From the NCBI GenBank assembly GCA_947259735.1, contig CAMYNN010000001.1:40409-104408 (forward strand): DNA of 64,000 nt. Direction: 5' to 3'. The notes below the pieces were generated by a model, which was not told where the DNA came from, made no database searches, and was given only the letters and a program-made list of their open reading frames with translations. Below, in pieces: positions 23,973 to 61,838 of the stretch. The stretch comes from Thermodesulfovibrionia bacterium. Lineage in GTDB: Bacteria > Nitrospirota > Thermodesulfovibrionia > UBA6902. The position numbers and the translations under genes were made by a program. The stretch's first letter is position 1. Each line of letters begins with the position of its first letter.

Positions 23973-25217
23973 ATGCAGGAGAGAGCTCGTTTCATACAGA
24001 TGATCAAGAAGATTGAATCCAGTCAATTAAAGCCGGGCATGTATATTCATGACGTGGATGCTCAGTGGACGGAGGGCCCTTTCTTCGGAAAGGGGGTAAA
24101 GATCAGCAATGTTGAGACTGTTGAGCAGATTGTCAAGCTTGGTATCCCTGAAGTGTACATCGATACAGATAAAGGGCTTGATATAGATGGAAATTTTCAG
24201 ACAGAAGCAGGAGAAAGGGAGGATCGTAAAGAACCTGTACAAAGAGCTGACATACAATACGCGTCCATTCTGCCTGTGTCGGTGGGTGAGGAGATTATGC
24301 AGGCAAAGAAGGTTCAGCATCAGGCAATGGAAACAGTAAAAAATACCATGGATGATATCAGATCAGGAAGGCAGATCGAAAAGGAAAATGTAGAAGATAC
24401 CGTTGATGATATCATTGTATCGGTTCTCCGGAACCAGGGGGCCCTTTCCAGTCTCGGAAGGCTCAGAAAGACAAATGAATATTTTTACAAGCATTCCATA
24501 AGCGTTTGCGTTATGATGGTGTCCTTTGGCAGGTATCTTGAATACGAACCGCAGGTGCTCAGAGAAGTTGCAGTTGGCGCATTGCTGCATGATGTGGGGA
24601 CTTTGAAGGTTTCTCCTCACATTCTCAATAAAACGAGTAAATTAAATGAAGAAGAATACAATGAAATAAAGAAGCATGTTGAATATAGCCGTGAAATACT
24701 TGAACAAACAGAAGGGATCAGCGGAAAATCTATTATGACTGCCTGCGAACATCATGAGCGGATTGATGGTTCGGGATATCCGAAGGGTCTGAAAGGCGAT
24801 GAAATATCACCTGTTGGGCAGGCAATTGCAATAGTTGATACCTATGACGCCCTCTCAACAAAGCGATGTTACCGCCGGAAAATACCCCCCACACAGGCAT
24901 TACATATGATCTATGAAATGAGCGACACTCACTTCAACCGGGATCTGGTCCAGAAGTTTATTCGCTGTATCGGTATTTATCCGATTGGTTCCCTTGTGCG
25001 CCTGGAGAGCGGCCTGATAGGCGTAGTAGTAAAGCATAGCGAAGATAATCTGCTCCAGCCGGTAATACGCGTTATATATGACACAAAAAGAGACCGGTAT
25101 ATGATTGTTCCCTTTGACATCGACCTGGCAAGCCCTGAGGGAAGTGAAAAGGGAGGCCGGATTGTAACATATGCATTGCAGGAAGACTTTAATGTCCAGC
25201 CCGAAATGTATTTATAA
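23973..25217 (+). CDS. HD-GYP phosphodiesterase.
   Basis: HDVG...HHERIDGSGYP motifs. Confidence 0.85.
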   Translation: MQERARFIQMIKKIESSQLKPGMYIHDVDAQWTEGPFFGKGVKISNVETVEQIVKLGIPEVYIDTDKGLDIDGNFQTEAGEREDRKEPVQRADIQYASILPVSVGEEIMQAKKVQHQAMETVKNTMDDIRSGRQIEKENVEDTVDDIIVSVLRNQGALSSLGRLRKTNEYFYKHSISVCVMMVSFGRYLEYEPQVLREVAVGALLHDVGTLKVSPHILNKTSKLNEEEYNEIKKHVEYSREILEQTEGISGKSIMTACEHHERIDGSGYPKGLKGDEISPVGQAIAIVDTYDALSTKRCYRRKIPPTQALHMIYEMSDTHFNRDLVQKFIRCIGIYPIGSLVRLESGLIGVVVKHSEDNLLQPVIRVIYDTKRDRYMIVPFDIDLASPEGSEKGGRIVTYALQEDFNVQPEMYL

Positions 25218-26086: not shown

Positions 26087-28336
26087 CTATGAATAGTGAA
26101 AAACCAGTTTATCTTTCTCCACGTCAATGAACACCTTTCCTCCTTTATAGAGTCTCCCAAAGAGTACTTCCTCGGACAATACATCTTTTATTTCATTCTG
26201 GATGAGCCTTCCCAGTGGCCTTGCTCCGTACTGCGGATCATAGCCGCCCTCTGCAAGCCAGTCTTTTGCTTTCACACTCAGGGTAATCAGTACTTTTTTC
26301 TGTTTAAGCTGCTGAAGAAGTTCATTGATAAATTTATCGACGACCAACCGCATTATTCCCTGGTTCAGCGGATTAAATGTGATAATGGAATCAAGGCGGT
26401 TTCTGAATTCTGCGCTGAAAAGTTTATTCACCGCATCCATTCCCTTTCGGAGGGTATCTCCACTCCTGTCCCCAAATCCGACAGAGCTTCTGCTCATCTC
26501 GTTTGTGCCCGCATTTGACGTCATGATCAGAATTACATTCCTGAAGTCGGCCTTTTTGCCGTTGTTGTCTGTCAGGGTTGCATAGTCCATCACCTGAAGA
26601 AGAATGCTGAATATGTCGGGATGGGCTTTTTCGATCTCATCCATCAGGAGAACACTGTATGGATGCTTTCTGATTGCGTCTGTCAAAAGGCCGCCCTGGT
26701 CGAATCCCACATATCCGGGAGGTGCCCCTATCAGACGGGCAACGGTATGTTTTTCCATATATTCGCTCATGTCAAAGCGTATGAACTGGATCCCAAGCAC
26801 TGCCGCCATTGTTTTGGATGCTTCCGTCTTTCCGACACCCGTCGGTCCCGTAAAAAGGAAAGAACCGATCGGCTTTTCAGGCGCCCCGAGTCCTGCGCGG
26901 GAACGTTTTATTGAAGAGGCCAGTGTGTGGATGGCTTCGTCCTGGCCGAATACCGCCTTCTTTAACTCATCTTCCAGGTTTCTCAGCTTCTCCATATCCG
27001 ATGATGATATGTTGCGCTTCGGTATCTTTGCAATTTTCGAAACAACAGATTCGATCTCAGCCTGACCAACGGTCTTTTTCCGGATATAAGAAGAAGAAAG
27101 TCTGAGCGATGCACCAGCTTCATCTATTACATCGATTGCCTTGTCAGGAAGGTATTTGTCATTAATATACTTTGAGGAGAGTTCAGACGCTGCTTTAAGG
27201 GCCGTATCCCTGTATTTCACCCCGTGGTGTTTCTCATAATAGGATTTTAATCCTTTCAGAATGCGGAATGTTTCCTGTACGTCGGGCTCTGAAATTTCTA
27301 TTTTCTGGAAACGCCTTGACAATGCCCTGTCTTTTTCAAAATAGTTTTTGTATTCTTCATAGGTGCTGGCGCCAATGCAGCGAAGTTTCCCTGTACTCAG
27401 GATGGGCTTGAGAATATTGGATGCATCCATGGAACCTCCACTTGTTGCACCGGCTCCAACGACAGTATGTATCTCATCGATAAAGAGTATTGCATCAGGT
27501 ATGGACTCAAGTTTTTTTGTGGTGGATTTGAGGCGCTCTTCAAAATCACCTCGGTATTTAGTGCCTGCTATGAGACTTCCCATATCCAGGAGAAATATCC
27601 GTGCATGTTTAAGGAGGGCAGGGACTTCATTCTTATGGATTTTCAGTGCCAGTCCTTCAACGATGGCGGTTTTCCCTACCCCCGGCTCGCCGACAAAAAT
27701 GACGTTGTTTTTTCGTCTTCTGCACAATACCTGAATTGTTCTTTTTACTTCCTTGTCCCGGCCTACAAGAGGGTCAATTCTGCCCTCGGCCGCTTTTTGA
27801 ATCAGGTCTACTGTAAACTCAGTCAGAGGCTTCTTGCTGTGGTCCTCTTTTCTACGGGGAGCTTTTTTTGTTTCAAGGGGTGCTTCCATGAGAGGCTCTG
27901 CAATGTCTTTCGATATCCCGTGAGAGATGTAGTTTAATACATCTATCCTTGACACGCCTTCGCCCAAAAGAAAGTGAACGGCGTGCGAGTCTTTCTCAAG
28001 AAAAATTGCAGAAAGGATGTCACCTGCGTCGGCTTCAGGTTTTTCAGCTGATCTGACATGGTTCACTGCAGTCTGAAATACGCGCCTGAACGCAATGGTT
28101 GGTTCGGGATAGCCCTCAGAGGTATCCGACAGTTTAGGGATTTTAGTGTCGAAAAATTCTTCCAGTTGTACATTGAGATTTTCCACATTCCCGCCGCAAT
28201 GAGCAAGAATGTCACGTCCCCACTCGTCATGAATGATGGCAAAAAGTATATGTTCAACAGTCAGGTATTCATGGCGTCTTGTTTCGGCATCCCTTACCGT
28301 TGCTTCGATCGTTATTTCCAGTTCCTTGTTAATCAT
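26087..28336 (-). CDS. clpA: Clp protease ATP-binding subunit ClpA.
   Basis: Start set at MINKELEI by comparison with E. coli ClpA. Two AAA+ modules ([16 protein letters not shown]). Overlaps the clpS stop. Confidence 0.9.
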   Translation of the reverse strand: MINKELEITIEATVRDAETRRHEYLTVEHILFAIIHDEWGRDILAHCGGNVENLNVQLEEFFDTKIPKLSDTSEGYPEPTIAFRRVFQTAVNHVRSAEKPEADAGDILSAIFLEKDSHAVHFLLGEGVSRIDVLNYISHGISKDIAEPLMEAPLETKKAPRRKEDHSKKPLTEFTVDLIQKAAEGRIDPLVGRDKEVKRTIQVLCRRRKNNVIFVGEPGVGKTAIVEGLALKIHKNEVPALLKHARIFLLDMGSLIAGTKYRGDFEERLKSTTKKLESIPDAILFIDEIHTVVGAGATSGGSMDASNILKPILSTGKLRCIGASTYEEYKNYFEKDRALSRRFQKIEISEPDVQETFRILKGLKSYYEKHHGVKYRDTALKAASELSSKYINDKYLPDKAIDVIDEAGASLRLSSSYIRKKTVGQAEIESVVSKIAKIPKRNISSSDMEKLRNLEDELKKAVFGQDEAIHTLASSIKRSRAGLGAPEKPIGSFLFTGPTGVGKTEASKTMAAVLGIQFIRFDMSEYMEKHTVARLIGAPPGYVGFDQGGLLTDAIRKHPYSVLLMDEIEKAHPDIFSILLQVMDYATLTDNNGKKADFRNVILIMTSNAGTNEMSRSSVGFGDRSGDTLRKGMDAVNKLFSAEFRNRLDSIITFNPLNQGIMRLVVDKFINELLQQLKQKKVLITLSVKAKDWLAEGGYDPQYGARPLGRLIQNEIKDVLSEEVLFGRLYKGGKVFIDVEKDKLVFHYS

Positions 28337-28653
28337 TCCTTCTCCATAGAGCACTTGAGCGGGAAACTGCTCTGTTGGGCAAGTTCATGTACCCTGTTTA
28401 TTTTTGTTTCGGCAATTCCGTGCGTGTAAACTCCTGCGAGGCCCTTCCCGCTATTATGAACATGAAGCATTATCCGGGTAGCCTCGACGGGCGGCTTGTG
28501 GAATACTTTTTCAAGCACATGAACGACAAATTCCATGGTGGTATAGTCGTCATTCATGAGAAAAACCTTGTACATTGGAGGGGACTTGGTTTCCCCCCGC
28601 TCTTTTACCAGGAGCTCTTCGTCAAATCCATATTTAATATTATCGTCGGTCAT
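28333..28653 (-). CDS. clpS: Clp adaptor ClpS.
   Basis: PMYKVFLMNDDYTTMEFVVHVL core. Confidence 0.9.
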   Translation of the reverse strand: MTDDNIKYGFDEELLVKERGETKSPPMYKVFLMNDDYTTMEFVVHVLEKVFHKPPVEATRIMLHVHNSGKGLAGVYTHGIAETKINRVHELAQQSSFPLKCSMEKE

Positions 28654-30173: not shown

Positions 30174-31751
30174 ATGTCGAAAGAAAGCATATCCATTTTA
30201 ATTGCCGAGAGCAATACTCCTGATATCAATTTCATTAAGAGCTCCTTAAAAAATTACGATGACGTCACATATACTATTGATTCTGCTCGTTCCGGGACGG
30301 ATGTGCTTACCAAGGCAACTGACAACAAGTTTGATCTTCTCCTTGTGAATCAGGACCTGCCCGACGCCAAAGGAATTAAGATGGTTCAGGAGCTAATAAA
30401 AAGGAAACTGGGTGTTCCCATCATAATGATTATCGCGGAGGGAGAAGAAAAAATGGGTGTTAAGGCCCTGGATAAAGGCGCCTATGACTATTTGACGAAA
30501 AATGAGGTGAAGACTGTTGCATTGAACCGGGCAATCCGCAGGGCAATGCAGCGGAAAAAATTGGAAAGCAGTGTCCGGGAGTCTTTTGAAAAGCTGGAAA
30601 AACTCGCCATACGCGACGGACTAACAGGATTGTATAATCACCGTCATTTCCGTGAAGTACTCAAGAATGAATTTAAAAAATCGAAAAGGCATGTGCAGCC
30701 TCTGTCATGTATCATGATTGATCTTGATTATTTCAAGGCTGTAAATGACAATCATGGACATCAGTTCGGAGACATTGTTCTTGTCAAGGCAGCCAAAATT
30801 CTGATGAAACTGGTGAGGGATACCGACTTCGTGGCAAGGTACGGGGGGGAGGAATTTTTTATTGTTCTTCCGAATACGGACCTTCAGGGAGCATTCATCC
30901 TCGCAGAAAGAATACGGAAAGAATTCGAAAACAACGCTTTCAAGAAAGATAAAATATCTGAAAAAGTAACTATAAGCACCGGATTGTCATCAACATCCGA
31001 TGATAATGTGATGAATGATGAAGATATGATTACCAATGCAGACAAAGCTCTGTATCTTGCAAAGTGGAGGGGGAGAAATAATGTCTGCTATTATGATGAG
31101 GTAGAATCTGAGGAGACATTCAGTTTCAAGGAGGAATTGCAAAAGATAGAGGATTTTTACGCGAGATTTGAGGCAATTCGAGAAAATATAAAAACTACCT
31201 GTATTGAATCTGCCCATGATATACTGCGCGAGTTAGACAGAGGTTGGGAATTTACCAATGAGCATTCTGTGAGGGTAAGCAGGTATGCCGAAAAAATGAG
31301 CAAAGAACTGTCCCTTTCAGATGAAGAAGTGAGGATTATAAAAAGTGCTGCACTGCTCCATGATATAGGTATGGCAGGGATCAACTCAAAAATCGTCAGG
31401 AAAAAGGGACAATTAACGGAGAGAGAGTACCGGCTGATTAAAAGACATTCCAGCATCGGGGTAAAAATAATCGAGAGGACAAAACTGTTTCAAAAGGAAC
31501 TGCCCTTAATACTTCATCATCATGAGAGATTTGACGGGTCAGGATATCCTCACAAGCTCAAGGGGGAATCCATTCCCGTTGGAGCTCGAATACTGGCCAT
31601 AGCTGAAGCCTATGATGTAATGAAATCGACGACGGGATATAAAAAAGCTCTCTCTACAGAGAGTTCAATCTCAGAGCTGAAGGACTGTGCAGGGAGCCAG
31701 TTCGATCCAGACCTGGTCAGTACATTTGTCAGAGTTATAGAAAAAACGTGA
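30174..31751 (+). CDS. Response regulator with REC, GGDEF and HD-GYP domains.
   Basis: REC domain with a D-pocket. RxxD I-site and GGEEF. HD...HHERFDGSGYP. Confidence 0.85.
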   Translation: MSKESISILIAESNTPDINFIKSSLKNYDDVTYTIDSARSGTDVLTKATDNKFDLLLVNQDLPDAKGIKMVQELIKRKLGVPIIMIIAEGEEKMGVKALDKGAYDYLTKNEVKTVALNRAIRRAMQRKKLESSVRESFEKLEKLAIRDGLTGLYNHRHFREVLKNEFKKSKRHVQPLSCIMIDLDYFKAVNDNHGHQFGDIVLVKAAKILMKLVRDTDFVARYGGEEFFIVLPNTDLQGAFILAERIRKEFENNAFKKDKISEKVTISTGLSSTSDDNVMNDEDMITNADKALYLAKWRGRNNVCYYDEVESEETFSFKEELQKIEDFYARFEAIRENIKTTCIESAHDILRELDRGWEFTNEHSVRVSRYAEKMSKELSLSDEEVRIIKSAALLHDIGMAGINSKIVRKKGQLTEREYRLIKRHSSIGVKIIERTKLFQKELPLILHHHERFDGSGYPHKLKGESIPVGARILAIAEAYDVMKSTTGYKKALSTESSISELKDCAGSQFDPDLVSTFVRVIEKT

Positions 31752-33640: not shown

Positions 33641-33828
33641 ATTTTCATGCAGAAACAATTGTGTTTTTATTATATCCGACTGACGCAGTCTTTTGCTCTC
33701 TGCTGTGTCAGTGAAAAGAATTGCAGTGTGAATGCCGGGCATGATCGGCCTGTTTTCCTTCGTCAGTACTATAGGATTTCTGATGCAAAAATATATTAAA
33801 GGATTAATAAAAAAAAACCGTAGTTAAT

Positions 33829-33839
33829 ATTGATAATCA
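33829..33839. promoter_or_regulatory. Perfect palindrome TTGATAATCAA, 30 nt upstream of the cheY-like gene.
   Basis: Read directly. Confidence 0.2.
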
Positions 33840-33869
33840 ACAGAAAAAAATGGCGAAGAAGAAGGGGTA

Positions 33870-34250
33870 ATGATAAAGAAAATATTAATTATTGACGACT
33901 CTCCTATTGCGAGGAAGATGCTGAAAAGCTGCATGCCAAAGGATCAGGAATTTGAGTATCATGAGGCAGGAGACGGACAGGAAGGCCTTGATAAATATAA
34001 AGAAATAAACCCGGATGTGACATTTATGGATTTGACCATGCCTGTTATGACAGGGGATGAGTCAATCGGGAAAATAATAAATTATGACCGGAATGCAGTC
34101 ATAATTGTCGTAACTGCTGATATCCAGATGAAACAAATTATGAAAGTTATGGAATTGGGCGCATGTCTTGTGTTAAAGAAGCCGGTGAAAAAAGATGATA
34201 TTCTGACTGCCCTGTCAGACGTAGACGAACTCCTTAACAGAGTAATTTAA
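33870..34250 (+). CDS. Single-domain CheY-like response regulator.
   Basis: REC fold with conserved DD...D...T...K positions. Confidence 0.8.
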   Translation: MIKKILIIDDSPIARKMLKSCMPKDQEFEYHEAGDGQEGLDKYKEINPDVTFMDLTMPVMTGDESIGKIINYDRNAVIIVVTADIQMKQIMKVMELGACLVLKKPVKKDDILTALSDVDELLNRVI

Positions 34251-34251
34251 T

Positions 34252-34896
34252 ATGTACATTGATACCGAGAAAATATTTACCGTCGAGGAGACATACACTC
34301 TCCAGGAAATAATGAATATTGCCTTCGGACAAGCTGCAGCCGATCTGGCAGAAGTCATTGATACCTATGTTGTCTTAAATGTTCCCTATCTGAAAATAAT
34401 GCACATGACAGAGCTTTCTCACTATTTCAGTGAAAATATGCAGGAGTATAAAAAGATCAGCATTGTTGAACAAAAGTTCCGGGGGAAGTTCAAAGGTGAT
34501 GCACTCCTTGTTTTTTCTTCCGGAGCGGGAAAAGAATTGATGGATATGCTCCAGCAGGATGAGTCTTTCGGTTCTGGTTCTGATCCTGTGGAAATCGTGG
34601 AGAGAGAAACATTAATGGAAGTCGGGAATATCCTTATTGGGGCCTGTGTAGGAAGGCTCGCAGAACTGCTGAAAGATGTGGTGAACTATACTCCTCCCAG
34701 GGTCATTGTGGAAACGGATTACAATGAAGATGTACTTGAGAGCAGGTATAAGGGGAGTCAGACGGTAATTGTTTTGAAAACAAACTTTACTTTTGATAAG
34801 GGAAATGTGAGCGGGTTACTTTTTCTGGTTACCGATCAGGAATCCATAAGCTGGTTGAAGGACGCATTGCGTTTATTCATCGAACAGTATGAATGA
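34252..34896 (+). CDS. CheC-family CheY-P phosphatase-like protein.
   Basis: Two E-x2-N-x(20-22)-P CheC motifs (QEIMNIAFGQ..NVP and MEVGNILIG..TPP). Starts 2 nt after the cheY-like stop. Confidence 0.6.
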   Translation: MYIDTEKIFTVEETYTLQEIMNIAFGQAAADLAEVIDTYVVLNVPYLKIMHMTELSHYFSENMQEYKKISIVEQKFRGKFKGDALLVFSSGAGKELMDMLQQDESFGSGSDPVEIVERETLMEVGNILIGACVGRLAELLKDVVNYTPPRVIVETDYNEDVLESRYKGSQTVIVLKTNFTFDKGNVSGLLFLVTDQESISWLKDALRLFIEQYE

Positions 34897-35795
34897 TTTT
34901 AAATCAGGTTTTCGACGAAATAAATATCGGTCTTGTCATTCTTGACAGAGACATGAAGGTTCAGAAATGGAACCGGTGGATGGAACTTCACAGCGGTTTC
35001 GGTGCAGACAGGATCGTGGGCTCTTCCATTTTTGACTACTTCCCCGACCTGAACAATAAAAAATTCCACCGCAGCTGCAAGTCAGTATTTTCCTTCGGCA
35101 ACTGCTGTTTTTTCTCGCAGAAGCTCCACCACTATCTGTTTCCTTTTAAATCATCAGGCTACATTGATTCAGGCTTTGAATATATGCAGCAGAGTTGTTC
35201 TATGGGGCCTCTCCGTGATGAAAATAACGTCATTCAGTATTTGTTTATCCACGTTCAGGATGTAACAGAAGTTGCGCTCTATGAGCAAAAACTTGTGGAC
35301 ATGAACCTGAAAGACGGTCTTACGGGAATTTATAACAGGCGTTTCATGGAAGTGAAGCTCAGAGAAGAGTTTGACCGGTGCAGAAGGTATAACAGGGATT
35401 TCAGCATAATAATGTTTGACATCGATCATTTTAAAAATGTGAATGATGAGTACGGCCATCAATGCGGAGACTTTATTTTAAAGTCCATCAGTTCCAGGGT
35501 TTTGTCCATAATCAGAAACGTTGATTATCTTTTTCGGTATGGAGGGGAGGAGTTCTGTTGTCTCCTTCCTGAAACACAAATGAACAACGCCTTTATTGTT
35601 GCAGAGAGATTCAGGACAGCCATCATGGCAATGGAGAATGATTATGCCGGGTCAATTGTAAAGGTCACAATAAGTCTTGGAGTTGCCGGAATGGATAAAG
35701 ATATTGATTCCTCTGACAATATGGTCAAGATGGCTGATGATGCCCTCTATAAAGCGAAAAGGGAAGGGCGTAACAGGGCCCTGATCATGGGCTGA
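34893..35795 (+). CDS. PAS-GGDEF diguanylate cyclase.
   Basis: N-terminal PAS-like region, RxxD I-site and GGEEF. Overlaps the upstream gene by 4 nt. Confidence 0.8.
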   Translation: MILNQVFDEINIGLVILDRDMKVQKWNRWMELHSGFGADRIVGSSIFDYFPDLNNKKFHRSCKSVFSFGNCCFFSQKLHHYLFPFKSSGYIDSGFEYMQQSCSMGPLRDENNVIQYLFIHVQDVTEVALYEQKLVDMNLKDGLTGIYNRRFMEVKLREEFDRCRRYNRDFSIIMFDIDHFKNVNDEYGHQCGDFILKSISSRVLSIIRNVDYLFRYGGEEFCCLLPETQMNNAFIVAERFRTAIMAMENDYAGSIVKVTISLGVAGMDKDIDSSDNMVKMADDALYKAKREGRNRALIMG

Positions 35796-35897: not shown

Positions 35898-37367
35898 ATG
35901 TATCGAATACTGGTTATAGACGACGAAGAATCAATCCGGGAATTGCTGTCAGATTTTCTCCCGGAAAAGGGAACTGACGTTGTCACTGCATCAAGCGGTG
36001 AAAGGGGTCTGAGTCTCCTCAAAGAAGAAAAATTCGACCTTTTTCTGCTCGATTTAATGATGCCGGGAATAAGCGGCCTTGATGTTCTCAGAGAGGCTGC
36101 AGCGGAAAATATTGAGGTGCCTTCAATTGTAATAACTGCCCATGCGACTGTTCAGACTGCCGTTGAGGCAATGAAGCTGGGCGCCTTTGATTATATTACG
36201 AAACCCTTTAACCTTGAAGAATTATACCTGTCAATAAAAAGGGCGATTGATCATTCCAGATTGCAGGAGGAAAATGCCCGCCTGAAAAAAGAACTCAAGA
36301 AAAGAAGAAATAGTGTTTCCAAACTTCGGGAAGAAAATAAAGTACTGAAAACAGAGTTGCAGAAAGGTGTAAGTCAAAACAAAAGGGCCCTCGACAAGAT
36401 AGTAGGAAAGTCAAAGACGATTCAGGATGTTATTACCTTTATCGAGAAAATTGCAGATACTGACAGCACTGTTCTTGTTACAGGGGAAAGCGGTACAGGA
36501 AAGGAACTTGTCGCCAAGACAATACACTTCAACAGTTCACGGTCGAATAAGCCATATGTTCCACTTAATTGCGCGGCTATCCCGAGGGATATTCTTGAGT
36601 CCGAACTTTTCGGCCATGAAAAAGGAGCTTTTACCGGAGCAATCAACACGAGAATAGGGCGTTTTGAACTTGCCAATCATGGAACTATTTTCCTTGACGA
36701 GATTGGAGAACTTGCACCCGCGCTTCAGGTCAAACTGCTGCGAATTCTCCAGGAAAGGGAATTTGAACGGGTAGGCGGGATCAAGACGTTAAAAGTGGAT
36801 GTACGGGTAATTGCCGCCACGAACAGAGACCTCGAAAAAGCGGTGAGCGAAGGAATGTTCAGGGAGGACCTTTATTACCGATTGAATGTAATTCCTCTCC
36901 AATTACCTCCTTTAAGAAAGATGAAGGGTGATGTGCCGCTCTTAGTTGAACATTTCCTTACCCATATGTCGAAGAGAAAGGGAAAGACACGGCCTCATAT
37001 TTCAGCAGAAGTAATGAAATCCCTTTCAAGTTACATTTGGCCGGGAAATGTCCGTGAGCTTGAAAATATTATTGAGAGAATGTTGATACTGAAAGAGGGC
37101 GAAGACGTTACCGTCGATGATCTTCCGGACAGGATTCGTGATCAGCACCTTCCTCAGGGTGGATCTTTGAAGGGACAGTCTCTCTCTGCTGATGGTGTGA
37201 ATCTTAACATGATGCTCGATGAGATAGAGAATAAGATGATTATTCAGGCCCTGGAGCTATCAAAAGGGGTGAAGAGTAAGGCAGCAAACCTCCTGGGACT
37301 GAATCGAACGACACTCATTGAGAAGATGAAGAAAAAAGCGATAGAATACGGCATGTCGCAAAAATAG
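35898..37367 (+). CDS. Sigma-54-dependent response regulator of the NtrC family.
   Basis: REC domain, AAA+ module with GAFTGA (EKGAFTGA), C-terminal HTH. An unusual ~60-aa coiled-coil/Lys-rich insert lies between REC and AAA+. Confidence 0.85.
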   Translation: MYRILVIDDEESIRELLSDFLPEKGTDVVTASSGERGLSLLKEEKFDLFLLDLMMPGISGLDVLREAAAENIEVPSIVITAHATVQTAVEAMKLGAFDYITKPFNLEELYLSIKRAIDHSRLQEENARLKKELKKRRNSVSKLREENKVLKTELQKGVSQNKRALDKIVGKSKTIQDVITFIEKIADTDSTVLVTGESGTGKELVAKTIHFNSSRSNKPYVPLNCAAIPRDILESELFGHEKGAFTGAINTRIGRFELANHGTIFLDEIGELAPALQVKLLRILQEREFERVGGIKTLKVDVRVIAATNRDLEKAVSEGMFREDLYYRLNVIPLQLPPLRKMKGDVPLLVEHFLTHMSKRKGKTRPHISAEVMKSLSSYIWPGNVRELENIIERMLILKEGEDVTVDDLPDRIRDQHLPQGGSLKGQSLSADGVNLNMMLDEIENKMIIQALELSKGVKSKAANLLGLNRTTLIEKMKKKAIEYGMSQK

Positions 37368-37499: not shown

Positions 37500-39794
37500 A
37501 TGATTTATTTGCGTGCAATGAGCCTCTTCATCCTTGGTGCGACGCTGCTGCTGACGGGCATTGCACATGCGATAGTTCAGGGCGATGGATCAGACTCGCT
37601 GGCTATCAGGGCAGGGGACCATGACGATTTTCTGAGAATTGTGTTTGAAGGGAATAAAGAAGTGATTTCAAGGGGAAAGGCAATCCTGGAAGAAAAGGAA
37701 GTTACTGTTCGTTTTTCCGGTCTGGATATTAACGTAAAAAAGGCAGAACTGACTGTTGCATACAGTATTGAGAAGGATGTTGTCAGGTTTACATTAAAAA
37801 AGGAAGGACGGCTTGAGAGTTTTATCCTCGATAATCCAAGCCGGCTTGTCATTGACATCTACGGGAAGAAAGAGGAAAAAACAGACGAAAAAACACCAGA
37901 AAACGGGTCGATTGAAAAAAAGGAACCAATCAGCAGGGAAGGAAGGAAAGAAACGGTGCTCCAAAAAAGAGAAGTCCCGGACCCTTCGGAAGTGACTGAC
38001 ACGACCAGTCCGGAAAAGCCCGTAACCAGGCAGACAGAAGGAGACTTTATTCCCGAGAGATATAAAGCAATGTGGTCTCTTCTGGAATCAGGTAATTTTT
38101 TTGCTGTTCTGAAAGAGCTTCCAGCTTATGAACCGAAGGAGGTTGAGCTGCGTGCGGCATTTTATTATATCTATGCCGGGGCAAACATCAAGGCGAAACA
38201 ATATATGGATGCCGTCAAGTACCTGAGGCTTGCCTATATATTCTCAAATAATCATGCATTGAAGGAACATGCATTGATAAAAAGAGCGGTGATGTACAAG
38301 CAGATGAAGCTGGACCATGAGGCAAGGGCTGACTATATTGTTTTCATCAGAGATTTCCCATCTTCCGAATTTATCGAAAGCGCGCATTTTGGACTGGCAG
38401 AAAGTCTTTACCGTATCGGCCTTTACCAGGAAGCTGTCGAGCACTACAGGAAAGCTGGTCATGAACCCAAAGTCCTCTATAGCATGGCCAATGCCTTGCA
38501 GAGGCTTGAGAAGACCGGGGATGCAGAAAAAGTTTACGAGACGGCAAAGCTTAAGGATATGAAATATCCGAGAAGCTCTCCCGAAACGTATTATCTCATG
38601 GGTGAAAATATGCGTATTATGGGCAAATACGAAGAAGCAAAGAAACACATGTCAGTTATCAATTTAGGCCCCTTTCGCGATAGTGCTTCTATCAGCCTTG
38701 GTCTGATAGCGATGGAAGAGACTGATACAAATGAGGCTTTCAGCAAGTTTCAGGAAGCAGCCCGTTCAATAGATCCGAAAATACAGGTGCAGGCACTCTT
38801 CCATTTATCGCTGGCATTAATAAAGTCCGGTAAATTCAAGGAGGCTACGCAGAGCCTCGAAAAAATAAGAAGAGAACATATTGATTCAAACATGTATAAA
38901 GATACTCTTCTTGTCCTGGCAAAACTGTACAAGAAGGAAGACCGGTTAAAAGAATCAGTCTCTTTGCTGAAAGAACTTGTGTACGGAAAAAAACCTCCGC
39001 GAGAAGCCTTTGATGAGCTTGAGAGAATTGTAATTAAGGCCGGAAACTCATCGAAAGAAAGCGATTTGAAACTCGTAGATTTATGGAATCAGGTTGGTCA
39101 ATGGCTCATTGACGAGAGCAGAGAAGACTTCCTGGTTACTGTAGCCGGGAAGTTGAGAAATGAAGGGAAGCCATTTATTGACTTGTGCTTATGGCTTGTG
39201 GCGAACGGGTCTCAACATGCGAAGGGAACTGCAGCAGTGGCCCTGGCAGACTATAACATCGGGATAGGGAACAATGAAATGTCCAAGAAGTATATCGCCA
39301 TAGCAAAGGAATCGGAAAAGTCCGGTGATGATGTATTAAGGGTCGAGGCAAGAATTTATCTTTCAGAAGACAGGAAAGAAGCTGCACTTAAGAAGATACT
39401 GATGATAAAAAATATTGAAAAAGAAGATCTTGGTCAGCTGGCAGGCATAATATCTGATCTGAGACAGAGGGGATCTGTCAAAGTAAAGGATGCTCTTGTC
39501 TTTTACGAAGGTGCACTGAAAAAATCAGACGGGAATGCTGAGGACTATACGAATCTGGCCGATATTCTCTATTCCATGGGGGAACGGGGAAAGGCGCTTG
39601 AGTACTATAAACTTGCCTACGCCAGACAGCCTGATGACGAATGGGCGATGTACCGGGTGGGAAGGGATGCTAGTAACCCGGAATCCAGGGATATTCTCGA
39701 TCGATTACAAAACGGGGATACTCTTTTCGGACGTCTTGCAAAATCCAAACTGATGGAAATAACACTCCAGAGCAGAGTTCAGGAGGTGTTTTAA
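37500..39794 (+). CDS. Secreted AMIN-domain protein with multiple TPR repeats.
   Basis: Signal-peptide-like N-terminus. AMIN-like beta-region (SLAIRAG...RLVIDIYG). TPR-like helical repeats. The stop overlaps the histidine-kinase ATG (TAATG). Confidence 0.6.
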   Translation: MIYLRAMSLFILGATLLLTGIAHAIVQGDGSDSLAIRAGDHDDFLRIVFEGNKEVISRGKAILEEKEVTVRFSGLDINVKKAELTVAYSIEKDVVRFTLKKEGRLESFILDNPSRLVIDIYGKKEEKTDEKTPENGSIEKKEPISREGRKETVLQKREVPDPSEVTDTTSPEKPVTRQTEGDFIPERYKAMWSLLESGNFFAVLKELPAYEPKEVELRAAFYYIYAGANIKAKQYMDAVKYLRLAYIFSNNHALKEHALIKRAVMYKQMKLDHEARADYIVFIRDFPSSEFIESAHFGLAESLYRIGLYQEAVEHYRKAGHEPKVLYSMANALQRLEKTGDAEKVYETAKLKDMKYPRSSPETYYLMGENMRIMGKYEEAKKHMSVINLGPFRDSASISLGLIAMEETDTNEAFSKFQEAARSIDPKIQVQALFHLSLALIKSGKFKEATQSLEKIRREHIDSNMYKDTLLVLAKLYKKEDRLKESVSLLKELVYGKKPPREAFDELERIVIKAGNSSKESDLKLVDLWNQVGQWLIDESREDFLVTVAGKLRNEGKPFIDLCLWLVANGSQHAKGTAAVALADYNIGIGNNEMSKKYIAIAKESEKSGDDVLRVEARIYLSEDRKEAALKKILMIKNIEKEDLGQLAGIISDLRQRGSVKVKDALVFYEGALKKSDGNAEDYTNLADILYSMGERGKALEYYKLAYARQPDDEWAMYRVGRDASNPESRDILDRLQNGDTLFGRLAKSKLMEITLQSRVQEVF

Positions 39795-40990
39795 TGGAAA
39801 AAGCGGTAAAACTCAATGAAGCTTTTCACAACTTTACACAGGCATCAAAAAGTCTTGAAACATACTACGGAAAGCTTCAAAAACGGGTCCGGTACCTGAC
39901 AGAGGAGCTTGAGAAAAAAAATACCCAGCTGAGCGGAGCGATTTCTGAAGTGAAGGAATCAAAAGATTACCTGCAGGCGGTTTTGCAGAGCATTGGAGAA
40001 GCAATTATAGTACTCGACAGTGAAGATAGAATCACCATTATCAACAGGGCTGCAGAGAAACTTCTCGGTGCTGATGTTCAGAGGGTTACAAACAAAATGT
40101 TTCACCAGCTGAATATTAGTATTGAAGACAACAATTCCGGTACGAGACTGACAGTCGATGGGAGAGTGTCAGACGTAATTGTTTCCCGGTCTACAATATC
40201 CGGACCGGAAGGAGCGGAAAGGGGCTTTGTAATACTGGTAAAAGACATTACGCGGCTGAAAGAACTTGAGAGGCAGAATGAGAGAAATCAAAGGTTAATT
40301 GCAATGGGTGAAATGGCTGCGAAAATAGTCCATGAAATTAGAAGCCCCTTATGCAGCATAGAGCTCTTTTCAAACATGCTCTCAAAAGATTTGGAAAATA
40401 CAACCCATTCTGACATGGCAAATGGAATCTCAACGGGAATTAAAAGCCTCAACAATATTCTTACGAACATGCTGTTTTTTGCAAAAGCACAAAAGCCTTC
40501 GTTCAGGGAAGTACGACCTTCCGAAGCGGTTGAAGAATCGGTGAAAATGCTCTTCCCGCTTGTTCAGATTCGTGGAATTAAGATTTCAAAGAAACTGTCC
40601 AATGATGCAGTGAGCGGGGATCTTGAACTCATGAAGCAGGTATTTATGAACATAATTCAGAATTCCATCCAGGCTATGCCTGACGGGGGAATACTGAACA
40701 TAAAAATGGAGGAATACGGAGAATGGATAAAGGTTTCCGTAACAGACAGCGGAAGCGGGATCAGTCAGGAAAATATCGAAAAAATATTTGATCCCTTCTT
40801 CAGTACAAAAGATAACGGAACCGGGTTGGGGCTTGCTATTGCCAATAAAATTATGCAGAGCCACGGCGGCATAATCAAGGCCTTCGGAAAAGAGGGTGAG
40901 GGCAGTACCTTCGACCTCTGCTTCCCTAAACAAAAAGTATCAGACAGTGAAATATCCGCAGAAATCTTATATGAAAAAGCAGGTATATAA
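39794..40990 (+). CDS. Cytoplasmic sensor histidine kinase (PAS-HisKA-HATPase), FleS/FlgS-like.
   Basis: H-box (IVHEIRSPL) and N/G1/G2 boxes. No TM segment. Confidence 0.8.
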   Translation: MEKAVKLNEAFHNFTQASKSLETYYGKLQKRVRYLTEELEKKNTQLSGAISEVKESKDYLQAVLQSIGEAIIVLDSEDRITIINRAAEKLLGADVQRVTNKMFHQLNISIEDNNSGTRLTVDGRVSDVIVSRSTISGPEGAERGFVILVKDITRLKELERQNERNQRLIAMGEMAAKIVHEIRSPLCSIELFSNMLSKDLENTTHSDMANGISTGIKSLNNILTNMLFFAKAQKPSFREVRPSEAVEESVKMLFPLVQIRGIKISKKLSNDAVSGDLELMKQVFMNIIQNSIQAMPDGGILNIKMEEYGEWIKVSVTDSGSGISQENIEKIFDPFFSTKDNGTGLGLAIANKIMQSHGGIIKAFGKEGEGSTFDLCFPKQKVSDSEISAEILYEKAGI

Positions 40991-53560: not shown

Positions 53561-54601
53561 CTAGACTGAATTTATAATATACCCCGCAATTTCATCGATG
53601 GGAAGAATCTGGTCGGCAGCACCTGATTCCACAACTGACTTGGGCATTCCGTAAACGACACAGGTCTGCTCGCTCTCCGCGATTGTCCTTCCCCCCTTGT
53701 TCTTGATTTCCTTCATACCCTTGGAGCCGTCGTTCCCGAGGCCCGTAAGAATTACGCCGAGCACATGGCCGGAGAAACTTTCAACCGCTGAAAGCATGAG
53801 GACATCAACGGAGGGTCTGTAGATATATTCCCCTCTTTCCTCAGAAATACGTAGCACTGATTCTGTTATTTTTTTTCGTTCTATGCTCATATGACCTCTG
53901 CCGGGCGCGATATATATTGTGCCTTTTTTCACCAGGTCCCCCTCTTCGGCTTCTTTTACTTTAAGAGCGCTCAGTTGATTGAGCCTTTCAGCAAAGGGAC
54001 CGGTAAATGCAGGCGGCATATGCTGGGCAATGATAATTGGAACAGGAAAGTCTTCCGGTAAGCAGGTTAATATTTTTTGCAATGCCCTGGGACCGCCTGT
54101 TGAGGAACCTATAGCGACGACATTGATTTTCCTCTGCGCTATATAATTTGTCTTTTCGGGCATTTTCAGAGGTCCCGAAAGTTTATTGTTGAAGCCCTGG
54201 GACAGACCTTTGCTGCCGATATTCTTTATTTTTTCAATGAGTATTTCTTTAATTTTAACTATATTGATAGAAAGGTCTGATAAATTTTTGGGGATATAGT
54301 CTACGGCCCCTATGTCAAGGGCATCCAGTGTTAAATTGGCCCCTTCAGTAGTCAATGAACTGACCATCAGCACAGGCAGGGGATTCTTGTCCATTATCTG
54401 CTTCAGTGCCTCGATACCGTCCATCCGGGGCATCTCAACATCAAGTGTAACTAAATCAGGCTTCAGTGAAACAACTTTTTCCACAGCCTCAATTCCGTCA
54501 CGCGCAAAACCGACCACCTCAATTTCAGGATCGGAAACGATCATGCTTGAGAGAGTGTTCCTCATAAAAGCGGAGTCATCGACTATTAAAACCCTAATCA
54601 T
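53561..54601 (-). CDS. cheB: Chemotaxis methylesterase CheB (REC plus methylesterase domain).
   Basis: REC N-domain. Catalytic Ser/His/Asp methylesterase region. Confidence 0.9.
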   Translation of the reverse strand: MIRVLIVDDSAFMRNTLSSMIVSDPEIEVVGFARDGIEAVEKVVSLKPDLVTLDVEMPRMDGIEALKQIMDKNPLPVLMVSSLTTEGANLTLDALDIGAVDYIPKNLSDLSINIVKIKEILIEKIKNIGSKGLSQGFNNKLSGPLKMPEKTNYIAQRKINVVAIGSSTGGPRALQKILTCLPEDFPVPIIIAQHMPPAFTGPFAERLNQLSALKVKEAEEGDLVKKGTIYIAPGRGHMSIERKKITESVLRISEERGEYIYRPSVDVLMLSAVESFSGHVLGVILTGLGNDGSKGMKEIKNKGGRTIAESEQTCVVYGMPKSVVESGAADQILPIDEIAGYIINSV

Positions 54602-54639
54602 GAAAATTCCTCATTCTATTCATTTAGCGTTGTTTTTGG

Positions 54640-55107
54640 CTACGGTAATTGAACTGCTTCTCCCATCAGTTTATTGATGTCAATGATAATAATAAGCCTG
54701 TCATCAAGATTGGCAAGGCCTTCAATAAACTTGCTGCTCATGTCTGATGACATTGGCGGAGCAGCTTCTATCCTGCTTGCAGGAACTCTCAGCACTTCTG
54801 ACACGGAATCGACAACGAGACCATTTGTAATTCCTTCCAGTTCCATTATTATGATTCTTGATGTATCATCTGCGGGTTTGTCGTCAAAGGCAAATTTTTT
54901 TCTGAGATTTATTACTGGAATTACCTTGCCCCTCAGATTGATGACACCCTCAATGTAATCTGCCGAATTCGGAACCTTTGTGATCTCCGTTATCCTGTTT
55001 ATTTCCTGAACGTTCAGAATATCAACTGCGTACTCTTCATTGTTCAGAGTGAACGTTACAAACTGAAGGACTTCCTCCACTACTGATGTGTCGACTGATG
55101 CGTCCAT
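54640..55107 (-). CDS. cheW: CheW coupling protein.
   Basis: Single CheW domain of 155 aa. Confidence 0.85.
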   Translation of the reverse strand: MDASVDTSVVEEVLQFVTFTLNNEEYAVDILNVQEINRITEITKVPNSADYIEGVINLRGKVIPVINLRKKFAFDDKPADDTSRIIIMELEGITNGLVVDSVSEVLRVPASRIEAAPPMSSDMSSKFIEGLANLDDRLIIIIDINKLMGEAVQLP

Positions 55108-55181
55108 GGGTTTGCCTCCTGTTTATTTAATAAATTTATACTCTTCATATCTACTGGCAGCATTACCATCAATAATAAATA

Positions 55182-56423
55182 TTAAAAACCGAAATCATTG
55201 AGCATGGCCTCTACATCTGACTGGCTCACTTTTTCTTCCTCTTCAGCGTTATCTCTCTCAGTTAATTCCTCAGGTGATGATTCAGATTTCCCGGCTGCTT
55301 CGATTGCCTCTGTTTTTACGGACATCCCAAACTTGCTGACAAGGCTCAAAAGTTCAGATTCAACATTATTCACAAGGTTGATGACTTTTTTTATCGTCTG
55401 CCCGGTTATGTCCTGAAACTGTTGCGCTGTGAGTATGGAAGTCATATCATCATCGAGAGCGGACTTAAAGGATTCAAGGTAGCTGACTCTGTCATTGTCA
55501 TTCCCTATTTCTCTGACCTGCCTGGCAAATTCATCAGATTCCTCAAAATATCTCTCAACTATGCCCATTGTCCTGTTCGCGGCGTCTTCTGTCTTTGACA
55601 TGACAAACTGGAGTTTGTCAACGGCACTCGGGACGTCGTCCTTTGTTAACCGTTGAATACCGTTATCGAGCGATCCTTTGAACTCTTCGAGTGAAGTATG
55701 CAATTTTCTTGTGATATTTCCGACTTCCCTGAAAAGCCCGCCCTCTGTTTCCCTGCCGAGCTGCTCAACAATTACTTCAACCTGTTCGTATTCCTGTGCT
55801 TCGAGAGCATTGATGAAATTAATCATCAGATCACCGACGTTATGCTTTGGATTCTCCCTGTCGAGTTTACCGCGGAAGTATTCCTTTGCATTATGCAGCT
55901 CCGTTACCCTTACTTTTCCTGCGATGGAATCCACTTCCTTTGTAACTTCAACATTTACCCCATCTGACGATTCCTCTACATTAATTATGTTCTCTTCTAA
56001 AAGACTCATATCCTCAAGAGGCAGAAGATTTCTTGTATTCAGCAGAACAATCAGCTTATTGTCCAGTTTTGCTACACCTTCGACAGCGTCTGCATTGTTT
56101 TTGAAAAAACTATCGGGAGGCTCGATATCTGATTCATCAGCATTAACGACCCCGGTAATTTCATCAACGATGATTCCAAAGGTAATTTTCCCTGTTGCGA
56201 GGACGATGACGATATTTCCATTACATTCATTGCACTCTGAATCAAGGAGATTCTTAAGATTTACAATCGGGATGATATTCCCTCTCAGGTTTGATATTCC
56301 CCGAACATATCCTGGCATGTGCGGAAGGGCAGTTACGGACGGCATTCCGATTATTTCGCGAACCTTTAATATGGGAATCATATATTCGCTGGAATTTACG
56401 CTGAACCCTATATACTGATTCAA
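55182..56423 (-). CDS. Fusion of an N-terminal CheW domain to a C-terminal CheZ phosphatase. TTG start.
   Basis: N-terminal CheW-like domain. C-terminal TAQQFQDITGQTIKKV matches the E. coli CheZ catalytic AQDFQDLTGQVIKR. The final MLNDFGF matches the CheZ CheY-binding tail LLDSLGF. An AGGAGG RBS precedes the TTG. Confidence 0.75.
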   Translation of the reverse strand: MNQYIGFSVNSSEYMIPILKVREIIGMPSVTALPHMPGYVRGISNLRGNIIPIVNLKNLLDSECNECNGNIVIVLATGKITFGIIVDEITGVVNADESDIEPPDSFFKNNADAVEGVAKLDNKLIVLLNTRNLLPLEDMSLLEENIINVEESSDGVNVEVTKEVDSIAGKVRVTELHNAKEYFRGKLDRENPKHNVGDLMINFINALEAQEYEQVEVIVEQLGRETEGGLFREVGNITRKLHTSLEEFKGSLDNGIQRLTKDDVPSAVDKLQFVMSKTEDAANRTMGIVERYFEESDEFARQVREIGNDNDRVSYLESFKSALDDDMTSILTAQQFQDITGQTIKKVINLVNNVESELLSLVSKFGMSVKTEAIEAAGKSESSPEELTERDNAEEEEKVSQSDVEAMLNDFGF

Positions 56424-56515
56424 TGAGTCCTCCTGTTCGGCATAGGTAGTATCATTATTTTTTCATTCTTCAGCTGATTGTTCACTTCTCTCTGTATCAT
56501 GCCTGTCTTTCCGTA

Positions 56516-58393: not shown

Positions 58394-58425
58394 TCGTGGT
58401 CCTCCATACCGGTCAACGGTAAGAA

Positions 58426-58821
58426 TTAACTCTGTGCCTGCAGTCTTTCATATATTTTTTCCATTTTTTCTTTTAACACTTCTGCTGTAAATGGTTTTAC
58501 GATGTAGTTGTTGACGCCAGCCTGTATCGCTGCGATAACTTTTTCTTTCTCTGCTTCTGCGGTGACCATGAGAATTGGAGTGTCTTTCAATTCAATGTTG
58601 CCCCGTACCGCTTTTACAAGTTCAAGCCCATCCATGTTGGGCATGTTCCAGTCGCTGACAACGAACCCAAAGCCTCCTCCCTGAAGTTTTGAAAACGCCT
58701 GAGCACCGTCTTCTGCTTCTTCTATGCTTTCAAATCCAATTTGTCTGAGTAGATTTTTTACGATTCTTCTCATAGTTGAAAAATCGTCAACCACAAGCAC
58801 TTTTGCCTTAAGATCAATCAT
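58426..58821 (-). CDS. cheY: CheY, very close to enterobacterial CheY.
   Basis: [15 protein letters not shown]...[12 protein letters not shown]...PILMVTAEA...[11 protein letters not shown]. Confidence 0.9.
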
Positions 58822-59206
58822 GTTGTATACCTCCTTTGGCGAACATTTCTTGAATAATGTTTTTTATGTTTTGTGCAATTACATCTCCCGTAACAGGTTT
58901 TATCAGATAACCGTTCGCTCCATAACGAAGAGCCTTTTCCCGCTCTTCATCATCGCTCTCTGTGGTTACCATGAGGATCGGGAGTTCTTTCAGATCGGAG
59001 TTCGATCGAACTGCTTTAATCAGTTCAAGGCCGTCCATATAGGGCATGTTCAGATCTGCCATAATGAGATTGACCGGATCGGTGCCGAGTTTTTCAAGGG
59101 CGTCAAGACCGTTCTCAGCGAACACTACCGAATATCCTCGTGTCTTTAAATAGTGTCCAAGCAGTTTTCTTGTTGTCTGACAATCATCGACAATCATGAT
59201 TTTCAT
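58814..59206 (-). CDS. Second CheY-like single-domain response regulator.
   Basis: REC domain. Overlaps the downstream cheY by 8 nt. Confidence 0.85.
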
Positions 59207-59271
59207 GGTGTTACCTCAAATATATTAAATAATGTAATCTCTCTCTCTAATTTCATTTCACATTACCGCGT

Positions 59272-61514: not shown

Positions 61515-61838
61515 TGTTATCCTTACTGTGGTACAGAATCTCCACTGATGGATGATCCAATTACCTATGCGAAGCAGACCATGTATTTATTTGAATGTAT
61601 TACCGTTCATCTATGTTTAAATTATCGGAATAAAAGGGGGATATCTTTAGCATCAAAGCATTGTTCTCAATGTTTGAATGTCAGAGAGAAAGGACGGTGG
61701 GTGAATTATATGATTAGCTTGCTTAGCGAGCTTCATGGAGGACGTTGTGAGCCCAGCAACGGTAAGGCAGCGGGGTATGTCACATGGTGCAGCAGGGAAG
61801 AATAAACAGAATACCTGCAGGGAAGCACTGCACCCTGT

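Follow-up and report, generated by a model that had tools for sequence, protein, structure and literature searches.

A conserved cassette of a CheY-type receiver, a CheC-type phosphatase homologue and a PAS-GGDEF cyclase in a Thermodesulfovibrionia bacterium

In Thermotoga maritima, the response regulator CheY is handled by CheC, CheX and FliY, and the active site of the CheC family, D/S-x3-E-x2-N-x22-P, occurs twice in CheC and in FliY. Some CheCs, referred to as 'class II', are said to act outside chemotaxis. Response regulators that fuse a receiver (REC) domain to CheC form a recognised Galperin class with an enzymatic CheC output, for example Psyr_0886 / PSPTO1039 (PMC2222644, citing Galperin's classification). 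Here we describe a related arrangement in a 64,000-nucleotide (nt) stretch of DNA, called the window throughout, from a Thermodesulfovibrionia bacterium (Nitrospirota; assembly GCA_947259735.1, contig CAMYNN010000001.1, positions 40,409 to 104,408 of the forward strand). Three adjacent genes encode a stand-alone CheY-type receiver (hereafter REC), a CheC-type phosphatase homologue and a PAS-GGDEF protein predicted to make cyclic di-GMP (c-di-GMP). The parts belong to known families, and the cassette as a whole is conserved and apparently unstudied. In full-text literature searches, neither a REC-CheC-GGDEF nor a REC-CheC-PAS cassette turned up in any paper, and the literature searched does not describe a link between the REC-CheC class and a specific PAS subfamily with GGDEF or histidine kinase (HK) outputs. 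A single study was found that brings 'CheC-like' and c-di-GMP together; it deals with V. vulnificus CheX and a PilZ effector, whose relationship is of another sort (PMC12887009).

The cassette CheC-like protein has the same fold as T. maritima CheC (1XKR), FliY (4HYN) and Borrelia CheX (3HZH). Like CheC and FliY it possesses two pseudo-symmetric E-x2-N...P sites, and like CheC it is about 205-215 amino acids (aa) long and is paired with a CheY-type receiver akin to T. maritima CheY. However, it is only about 17-19% identical to these proteins in structural alignments, and its gene is tied to a PAS-output protein and neither to receptors nor to the motor. Unlike the gene for classical CheC, it lies outside the chemotaxis (che) operon; that operon contains neither CheC nor CheD, and no CheD was seen in the annotated parts of the window. 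Relative to the REC-CheC response regulators, the cassette pair is orthologous but split into two proteins whose genes appear translationally coupled. Like the REC-GGDEF proteins WspR, PleD and Rrp1, the cassette would combine receiver phosphorylation with a diguanylate cyclase bearing an I-site, but its receiver and cyclase are separate polypeptides and a PAS domain stands in place of the REC stalk. Unlike the Wsp system, it encodes a putative dedicated phosphatase and is accompanied by no dedicated CheA/MCP/CheW/CheR/CheB cluster, with no che genes conserved next to it.

The three genes and their products

The three open reading frames (ORFs) of the cassette are closely packed on one strand (Table 1). 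A single base (34251) separates the REC stop codon from the ATG of the CheC-like gene, and the CheC-like and cyclase genes overlap by 4 nt at an ATGA junction. Since a Shine-Dalgarno-like element is present before the first cassette ORF only, this spacing suggests translational coupling. The hairpin at the end of the cyclase ORF is followed by a gap of 102 nt before the next gene, which suggests that the cassette may form a separate transcription unit. An earlier note on this DNA had delimited the same three ORFs, and its coordinates and motif calls proved correct. So did its spacing of +2 and -4, in which '+2' is the start minus the end and corresponds to a true spacer of 1 nt.

Table 1. Positions of the cassette and of other features in the window
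Feature	Position	Strand	Details
CheY-type receiver (REC), stand-alone	33870-34250	+	126 aa; ORF list, Pfam
CheC-type phosphatase homologue	34252-34896	+	214 aa; ORF list, Pfam
PAS-GGDEF cyclase (predicted)	34893-35795	+	300 aa; ORF list, Pfam
PAS domain, N-terminal part of cyclase	34893-35290	+	about residues 1-132; Pfam PAS_4
GGDEF diguanylate cyclase domain	35291-35795	+	Pfam GGDEF, motifs
Shine-Dalgarno-like AAGGGG, 2 nt 5' of REC ATG	33862-33867	+	sequence reading
Weak terminator-like hairpin across cyclase ORF end	35777-35793	+	consensus scan
Sigma-28 (FliA)-like motif TAAAG-N15-ACCGTAGTT	33797-33825	+	about 45 nt upstream of REC start
Sigma-54 activator (REC-AAA+-HTH)	35898-37367	+	Pfam; first downstream flagellar regulatory gene
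TPR protein	37500-39794	+	764 aa; weak AMIN match, Pfam
PAS-HK	39794-40990	+	Pfam
che operon	53561-61514	-	
CheW-CheZ fusion	55182-56423	-	CheW residues 3-134, CheZ 318-413
CheA	56516-58393	-	che operon
HEAT-repeat protein	60087-61514	-	475 aa; first che-operon gene
Near-consensus sigma-28-type site TAAAGATATCCCCCTTTTATTCCGATA (TAAAG-N15-TCCGATA)	61623-61649	-	324-nt intergenic region upstream of che operon
GGDEF protein	61839-63143	-	434 aa
GGDEF ORF	63432-63899	-	155 aa; just upstream of che operon
DUF3391-HD-GYP protein	23973-25217	+	
REC-GGDEF-HD-GYP protein	30174-31751	+	525 aa
Clp_N-AAA+ chaperone	7181-9616	+	
Clp_N-AAA+ chaperone	26087-28354	-	adjoined by clpS and Leu/Phe-tRNA protein transferase

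The first gene product matches Response_reg in Pfam (1.6e-22). Its best PDB matches are CheY proteins, the closest being T. maritima CheY (1tmy, 2.3e-19). The receiver quintet is complete, comprising D9, D10, D54, T82 and K104 (in a K104-P105 pair), and its residues are conserved in 73-76 of 76 orthologues. The stand-alone CheY-like receiver proposed in the earlier note therefore retains its phospho-acceptor Asp, D54, within a whole D-D-D-T-K set. Motor-binding CheYs have an aromatic switch residue (Y106 in E. coli, F101 in T. maritima). The residue of REC that aligns with T. maritima Phe101 is Val101, with V in 64 of the 76 orthologues, and REC shares only 24-30% identity with the two CheYs of the che operon in the window. 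REC thus resembles CheY in sequence, yet is probably not a motor-binding CheY. A distance of 20 kb separates its gene from the che operon, where two other CheYs are encoded.

The middle ORF, described in the earlier note as CheC-type with two E-x2-N...P motifs, scores above the Pfam gathering thresholds of both CheC (PF04509, 1.6e-11, 44.4 bits against a cutoff of 22) and CheX (PF13690, 2.9e-07, 30.9 bits against 27), and by sequence it matches T. maritima CheC in the PDB (1xkr, 3e-07). An AlphaFold2 model (pLDDT 89.9, pTM 0.86) displays a helix-strand-strand-helix-strand-strand-helix pattern that is repeated, giving the pseudo-two-fold alpha/beta CheC fold. In a Foldseek search of the PDB, the top matches to this model were FliY (4hyn), CheC (1xkr/2f9z) and a haloarchaeal CheC-like protein (3qta), with E-values of 1e-11 to 1e-13 and TM-scores of 0.65-0.72, and CheX and FliM ranked next. 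The middle ORF thus has the CheC/FliY/CheX fold on which the reading of the note had depended. Site 1 reads E19-x2-N22-x22-P45 and site 2 reads E123-x2-N126-x21/22-P148/P149, the latter with E119 at position -4 (E119-x3-E123). None of the six catalytic residues of the two sites varies among the 75 orthologues, and we predict a putative two-site phosphatase of phosphorylated CheY (CheY-P).

Within the family, the protein scores 62.2 bits against the NCBIfam equivalog CheC_Thtogales (NF041093, cutoff 250), so far below the cutoff that it represents a separate subfamily and not an orthologue of chemotaxis CheC. It is not FliY either, because it consists of the CheC domain only; it lacks a C-terminal FliN/SpoA domain as well as a FliY-type N-terminal CheY-binding peptide, and its match to NCBIfam FliY (51 bits, cutoff 218) spans the middle domain alone. 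With two sites and 214 aa, it is not CheX.

The third gene product contains GGDEF (2.6e-46) and PAS_4 (1e-08) domains. As the earlier note had read, both the GGEEF motif (G217-G-E-E-F221) and the I-site (R208-N-V-D211, five residues before it) are intact. The canonical N-D pair that specifies guanine is present as N184-D185, in contrast to the Ser of Hypr (GacA-type) enzymes, and 72-73 of 73 orthologues retain each of these motifs. PDB profile comparison matched the domain strongly to solved active cyclases (3ign, 4.6e-54; PleD, 1.7e-48; and WspR), and we predict an active, product-inhibited diguanylate cyclase.

Linkage, fusions and exchange of outputs

To place the cassette among other genomes, one genome per GTDB species was scanned, giving 425 loci with CheC-like relatives, of which the best 80 were analysed. 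These come from Nitrospirota (Thermodesulfovibrionia), Geobacterales/Desulfuromonadales, Syntrophales (Smithella), Desulfocapsaceae and anammox Planctomycetota (Brocadiales). When neighbours within about 6 kb of the CheC-like gene were clustered into families, only three were common to nearly all loci, namely the CheC-like family itself (74 loci), PAS-GGDEF (72) and REC (71), and the next commonest neighbour occurred in 23. The remaining families are each confined to particular lineages, whereas the three recur together in about 70 of the 80 loci, far more than chance would give. Essentially every locus with enough contig has REC and PAS-GGDEF orthologues flanking the CheC-like gene. The order is REC-CheC-DGC (DGC, diguanylate cyclase) in 50 loci and DGC-REC-CheC in 18. 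The genes remain closely spaced, and of the 50 loci with the former order, 40 have a CheC-to-DGC junction of -4 or -5 nt. Outside Nitrospirota, the neighbouring genes include those for methylmalonyl-CoA mutase, fatty-acid synthesis, TerC, FeoB, cation efflux and DAHP synthase.

A homologue search over 1.84 billion representatives yielded 2174 relatives of the CheC-like protein, several of which are REC-CheC fusions orthologous to the split pair. Their REC domains share a DLTMP...VTADIQ signature with the stand-alone REC. Two of the fusions were looked up, and in both the next gene overlaps the fusion gene by 4 nt and encodes a PAS-GGDEF protein 50-51% identical to that of the window. A more distant fusion (P0190) has the same PAS type downstream, fused to HisKA-HATPase in place of GGDEF. 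Conserved linkage amid changing flanks, permuted gene order and these Rosetta-stone fusions together argue strongly for a joint function of the three proteins. The self-contained module imagined in the earlier note is thereby strongly supported across phyla, and its remark that no kinase lies adjacent is correct: the nearest HK gene is about 4 kb downstream and cheA about 20.7 kb away, and among the neighbours within about 6 kb in the 80 genome loci we found no conserved cognate kinase. All of the close homologues belong to uncultured organisms, and their annotation reads no more than 'chemotaxis protein CheC'; the best 120 homologues for a Nitrospirota-type query and for a Geobacter-type query all derive from metagenome-assembled genomes or metagenomes.

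We then turned to a metagenome scan seeded with fusions, which comprised 80 loci plus the fusion loci L088-L091, or 84 in total, with the third partner determinable in 72. The same PAS subfamily adjoins REC/CheC in 59 of the 72, while the domain attached to it changes. With types confirmed by Pfam, the partner is PAS-GGDEF in 32 loci, a PAS-histidine kinase in 7, PAS-PAS in 1 and a short PAS-only protein in 11 (8 of them after REC-CheC fusions); in a further 8 the PAS is cut by the contig end. Large GGDEF-containing proteins of 650-850 aa are often found 1-4 kb away, on either strand, at loci that pair a REC-CheC fusion with a stand-alone PAS (L132, L144, L162, L165, L171).

No PAS partner was present in the other 13 loci, which are largely one clade. 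In its members (L093, L094, L095, L097, L101, L105, L106, L108, L111), a high-scoring REC and a CheC-like protein occur with no PAS within several kb, and L105 keeps a 145-aa GGDEF-like remnant just upstream of the pair. Evidently, REC and CheC can be retained as a pair where the third gene is absent.

What is conserved as the third partner of REC/CheC is therefore a single, specific PAS subfamily and not the GGDEF domain itself. Among cyclase orthologues, the PAS and GGDEF domains reach similar bit scores, with slightly higher values per residue for the PAS, and many PAS residues are invariant. A profile of this PAS has a single match in the window, the cassette cyclase itself (236.9 bits), and does not match the PAS of the nearby kinase. 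Over 165 retrieved loci, all seeded on CheC-like relatives or fusions, it matched almost only genes adjacent to REC/CheC. Residues G13, W26-N27, S34, M98-x-Q100, P106 and D123-x-T125 are universal over all output types. We also considered a haem-type PAS and rejected it. The GGDEF clade conserves H79, M98 and C102, but His79 and Cys102 vary in the HK and PAS-only variants, and a His-ligated haem is unlikely because His79 is not universal; the PDB profile matches of the cassette PAS included no haem-PAS structures.

The nearest solved structure to the cassette PAS is 3MXQ, a structural-genomics entry described as a Vibrio cholerae 'sensor protein' (3.6e-10 over residues 2-129). It belongs to the same subfamily and shares the signature FP(E)...W(E)Q.P.L.PF...RP..G...M.Q...P...YDVT, although Trp26 of the WN motif is replaced by Val. 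On a Vibrio-like metagenome contig (L172, 128-1686; 90% identical to 3MXQ), a REC of 121 aa and then a CheC-like protein of 193 aa precede this PAS, which is followed by an H-box, so that the Vibrio output is a histidine kinase, whereas that of the window is GGDEF. The PAS ORF of this contig stops after 201 aa, possibly through a frameshift. From the gene order and the identity to 3MXQ, V. cholerae itself probably has a kinase-output cassette, its synteny being extrapolated from the contig.

Flagellar context and promoter

In this member of the Nitrospirota, the flagellar regulon has the cassette at its head. The sigma-54 activator gene that follows it is syntenic with the cassette in 23 loci, all Nitrospirota. 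Further downstream, the PAS-HK is paired with its own sigma-54 regulator (FlbD/FlgR-like), after which the plus strand carries flgB, flgC, fliE, fliF, fliG, fliH, fliI and fliJ, then a hook-length gene (Flg_hook domain), flgD and flgE. The TPR/AMIN protein, encoded between the sigma-54 activator and the PAS-HK/FlbD-like pair, is kept in 16 Nitrospirota loci. We asked whether the downstream activator could be a FleQ-like c-di-GMP receptor and found no support for this candidate: its post-Walker-A residues are K-T (GESGTGKELVAKT), where FleQ has R185-N186, and a complete receiver domain is present.

Upstream of the cassette lie genes for a REC-GGDEF-HD-GYP protein and an HD-GYP protein. The former is syntenic with the cassette in 16 loci, again only in Nitrospirota, and may be the c-di-GMP-degrading counterpart of the cassette cyclase. 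Its GGEEF and HHE...GYP motifs are intact, and its receiver appears degenerate by eye, in that 'AES' stands where the DD pocket should be, the acceptor region reads 'LLLVNQD' and the Thr has given way to Ala. With two GGDEF genes just beyond the che operon and a DUF3391-HD-GYP gene (Table 1), this flagellar and chemotaxis region is unusually dense in c-di-GMP enzymes (same 40 kb).

The che operon encodes the HEAT-repeat protein, CheR, two CheYs, CheA, a CheW-CheZ fusion, CheW and CheB. The fusion unites a scaffold and a CheY-P phosphatase in one protein, and the chemotaxis CheYs therefore have a CheZ-type phosphatase of their own. Elsewhere, the window contains two Clp_N-AAA+ chaperone genes, one of which, with clpS and the Leu/Phe-tRNA protein transferase gene, makes up an N-end-rule set. 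The contig 5' of the window carries multihaem cytochromes, which with the chaperones amount to an ordinary housekeeping context.

The sigma-28-like motif upstream of REC is the sole match in the window to YWAAG-N16-CCGWA. By regular expression, a related motif, TAAAG/TTAAG-N15-xCCG(A/T)(T/A), was found upstream of REC in 17 of 70 loci, mostly Nitrospirota, compared with only 1.3% of random 163-nt windows. Several loci have a canonical TAAAGTTT-N11-GCCGATA upstream of REC, and the CCGTAG variant of the -10 element is found in the window and in locus L014. Other Nitrospirota loci have a sigma-70-like TTGACA-N17-GATACT upstream instead. Together with the near-consensus site upstream of the che operon, the motif and its footprint suggest FliA-dependent, late-flagellar expression of the cassette in this lineage. 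Inspection by eye of 33743-33869 revealed no sigma-54 promoter upstream of the cassette. The position at the head of the flagellar regulon with its sigma-28-like motif, the CheZ of the che operon and the PAS-subfamily partner did not feature in the earlier note.

Mechanism, alternatives and meaning

How might these three proteins work together? The explanation we prefer, with a confidence no better than even, is a three-gene cassette in which phosphorylated REC (REC~P) and the CheC-like phosphatase control c-di-GMP synthesis by the PAS-GGDEF protein. REC would be phosphorylated by a kinase encoded elsewhere, candidates being CheA or an orphan histidine kinase, and the translationally coupled CheC-type protein would hydrolyse REC~P and so keep the phosphorylated state short-lived. 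The REC/CheC pair would communicate with the dedicated N-terminal PAS of the third protein, and the PAS would in turn gate the product-inhibited GGDEF diguanylate cyclase. In this way c-di-GMP synthesis could track the upstream kinase as a rapidly resettable signal, making the cassette comparable to a 'split WspR/PleD with a built-in timer' that has its own reset enzyme. In the Nitrospirota host, it would be expressed with late flagellar genes, probably from a sigma-28-type promoter like that of the che operon, and its c-di-GMP output would most likely feed motile-versus-sessile decisions.

A number of observations weigh against this scheme. No kinase is conserved near the GGDEF variants, and phosphorylation of REC is therefore assumed. 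REC/CheC lacks a nearby PAS partner in 13 of the 72 determinable metagenomic loci, and the PAS-only variants, being without enzymatic output, agree no less well with signalling by PAS to CheC than with signalling by REC to PAS. In site 1 of the window's CheC-like protein, position -4 is Tyr15, where 70 of the 75 orthologues have D/E. The model of a natural REC-CheC fusion (P0131) reached a pTM of 0.56 with a disordered linker. Regarding the host, housekeeping genes flank the cassette outside Nitrospirota, so that the flagellar link is local and not general, and the sigma-28 assignment is a consensus match plus a phylogenetic footprint, with a degenerate -10 element (CCGTAG) in the window.

The main rival to this scheme, which we regard as unlikely, reverses the flow of information. 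The PAS would then sense a ligand or redox signal and tune the CheC-type phosphatase, as CheD does CheC in Bacillus and Thermotoga, with REC and CheC acting as a tunable phosphate sink for an unlinked CheA or HK and with GGDEF or HK as a second, parallel output of the PAS. CheD reportedly binds CheC and raises its activity. This reading is favoured by 8 loci where the gene after a REC-CheC fusion encodes a PAS of 140-154 aa that stands alone and lacks any output domain, and residues conserved over all output types would be expected of a PAS with a shared ligand or CheC contact. However, most PAS partners carry a fused enzymatic output (32 GGDEF and 7 HK among the 59 loci), no conserved PAS cofactor ligand was found, His79 not being universal, and with no kinase linked, no sink-type relation to a particular CheA is visible. 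It is distinctly unlikely, in our estimate, that the CheC-like protein is instead an adaptor that binds the PAS-GGDEF protein in a REC~P-dependent manner, sequestering or activating it, with phosphatase activity only as feedback. While the ATGA overlap of the CheC and DGC genes in most loci suggests a stoichiometric complex, the invariance of the six catalytic residues in all 75 orthologues argues that catalysis itself is under selection, and a CheC-PAS contact is putative. A precedent for such an adaptor comes from the B. subtilis CheC/CheD/CheY-P paradigm, in which CheC captures CheD as CheY-P rises (PMC3513319).

Two further explanations would make less of the cassette. Its CheC-like protein might be an auxiliary phosphatase for the flagellar chemotaxis CheYs, with REC and the cyclase merely co-expressed as late flagellar genes. 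The surrounding flagellar and chemotaxis region and a sigma-28-like motif as at the che operon speak for this view, as does V. vulnificus, where CheX and CheZ coexist with distinct roles (PMC12887009). Yet the triad is conserved at loci without flagellar or che neighbours, REC and CheC are fused in many organisms, the che operon already contains CheW-CheZ, and the low identity of the cassette REC to the che-operon CheYs sets it apart from them; we consider this reading very unlikely. That the operon does no more than group three genes of unconnected function is scarcely credible, given that the trio is co-inherited in at least five phylum-level lineages, with permuted order, fusions and all flanks changing.

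Beyond the preferred scheme of REC~P and CheC-like control over the cyclase, REC, a CheC-type phosphatase and the dedicated PAS subfamily may constitute a signalling core of three parts that has so far gone unrecognised and occurs widely outside chemotaxis, a generalisation we hold tentatively, at a little under an even chance. The combination is seen in Nitrospirota, Desulfuromonadales/Geobacterales, Syntrophales, Desulfobulbales, Brocadiales and Vibrio. Natural fusions mark REC and the CheC-like protein as a functional pair and the output swaps point to the PAS as the coupling element, so that within such a core the PAS may be the physical coupler of a CheY-like phospho-state to interchangeable outputs (diguanylate cyclase, histidine kinase or none).

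Two persistent gaps are addressed here, namely the route by which single-domain CheY-like receivers act on their targets and the function of CheC-type phosphatases outside chemotaxis. With three small soluble proteins and all catalytic motifs intact, the cassette offers a compact, conserved and testable case, and the 3MXQ structure and probable Vibrio homologue provide a tractable entry in a model organism open to genetics. If the reading of a three-part core coupled by the PAS is true, non-chemotaxis CheC proteins would acquire their first defined role, and single-domain receivers would be seen to be wired to c-di-GMP synthesis in a new way. In anaerobes of sediment and groundwater such as Thermodesulfovibrionia, Geobacter, Smithella and anammox bacteria, the cassette may link a fast phosphorelay to c-di-GMP and hence to the choice between attachment and motility.

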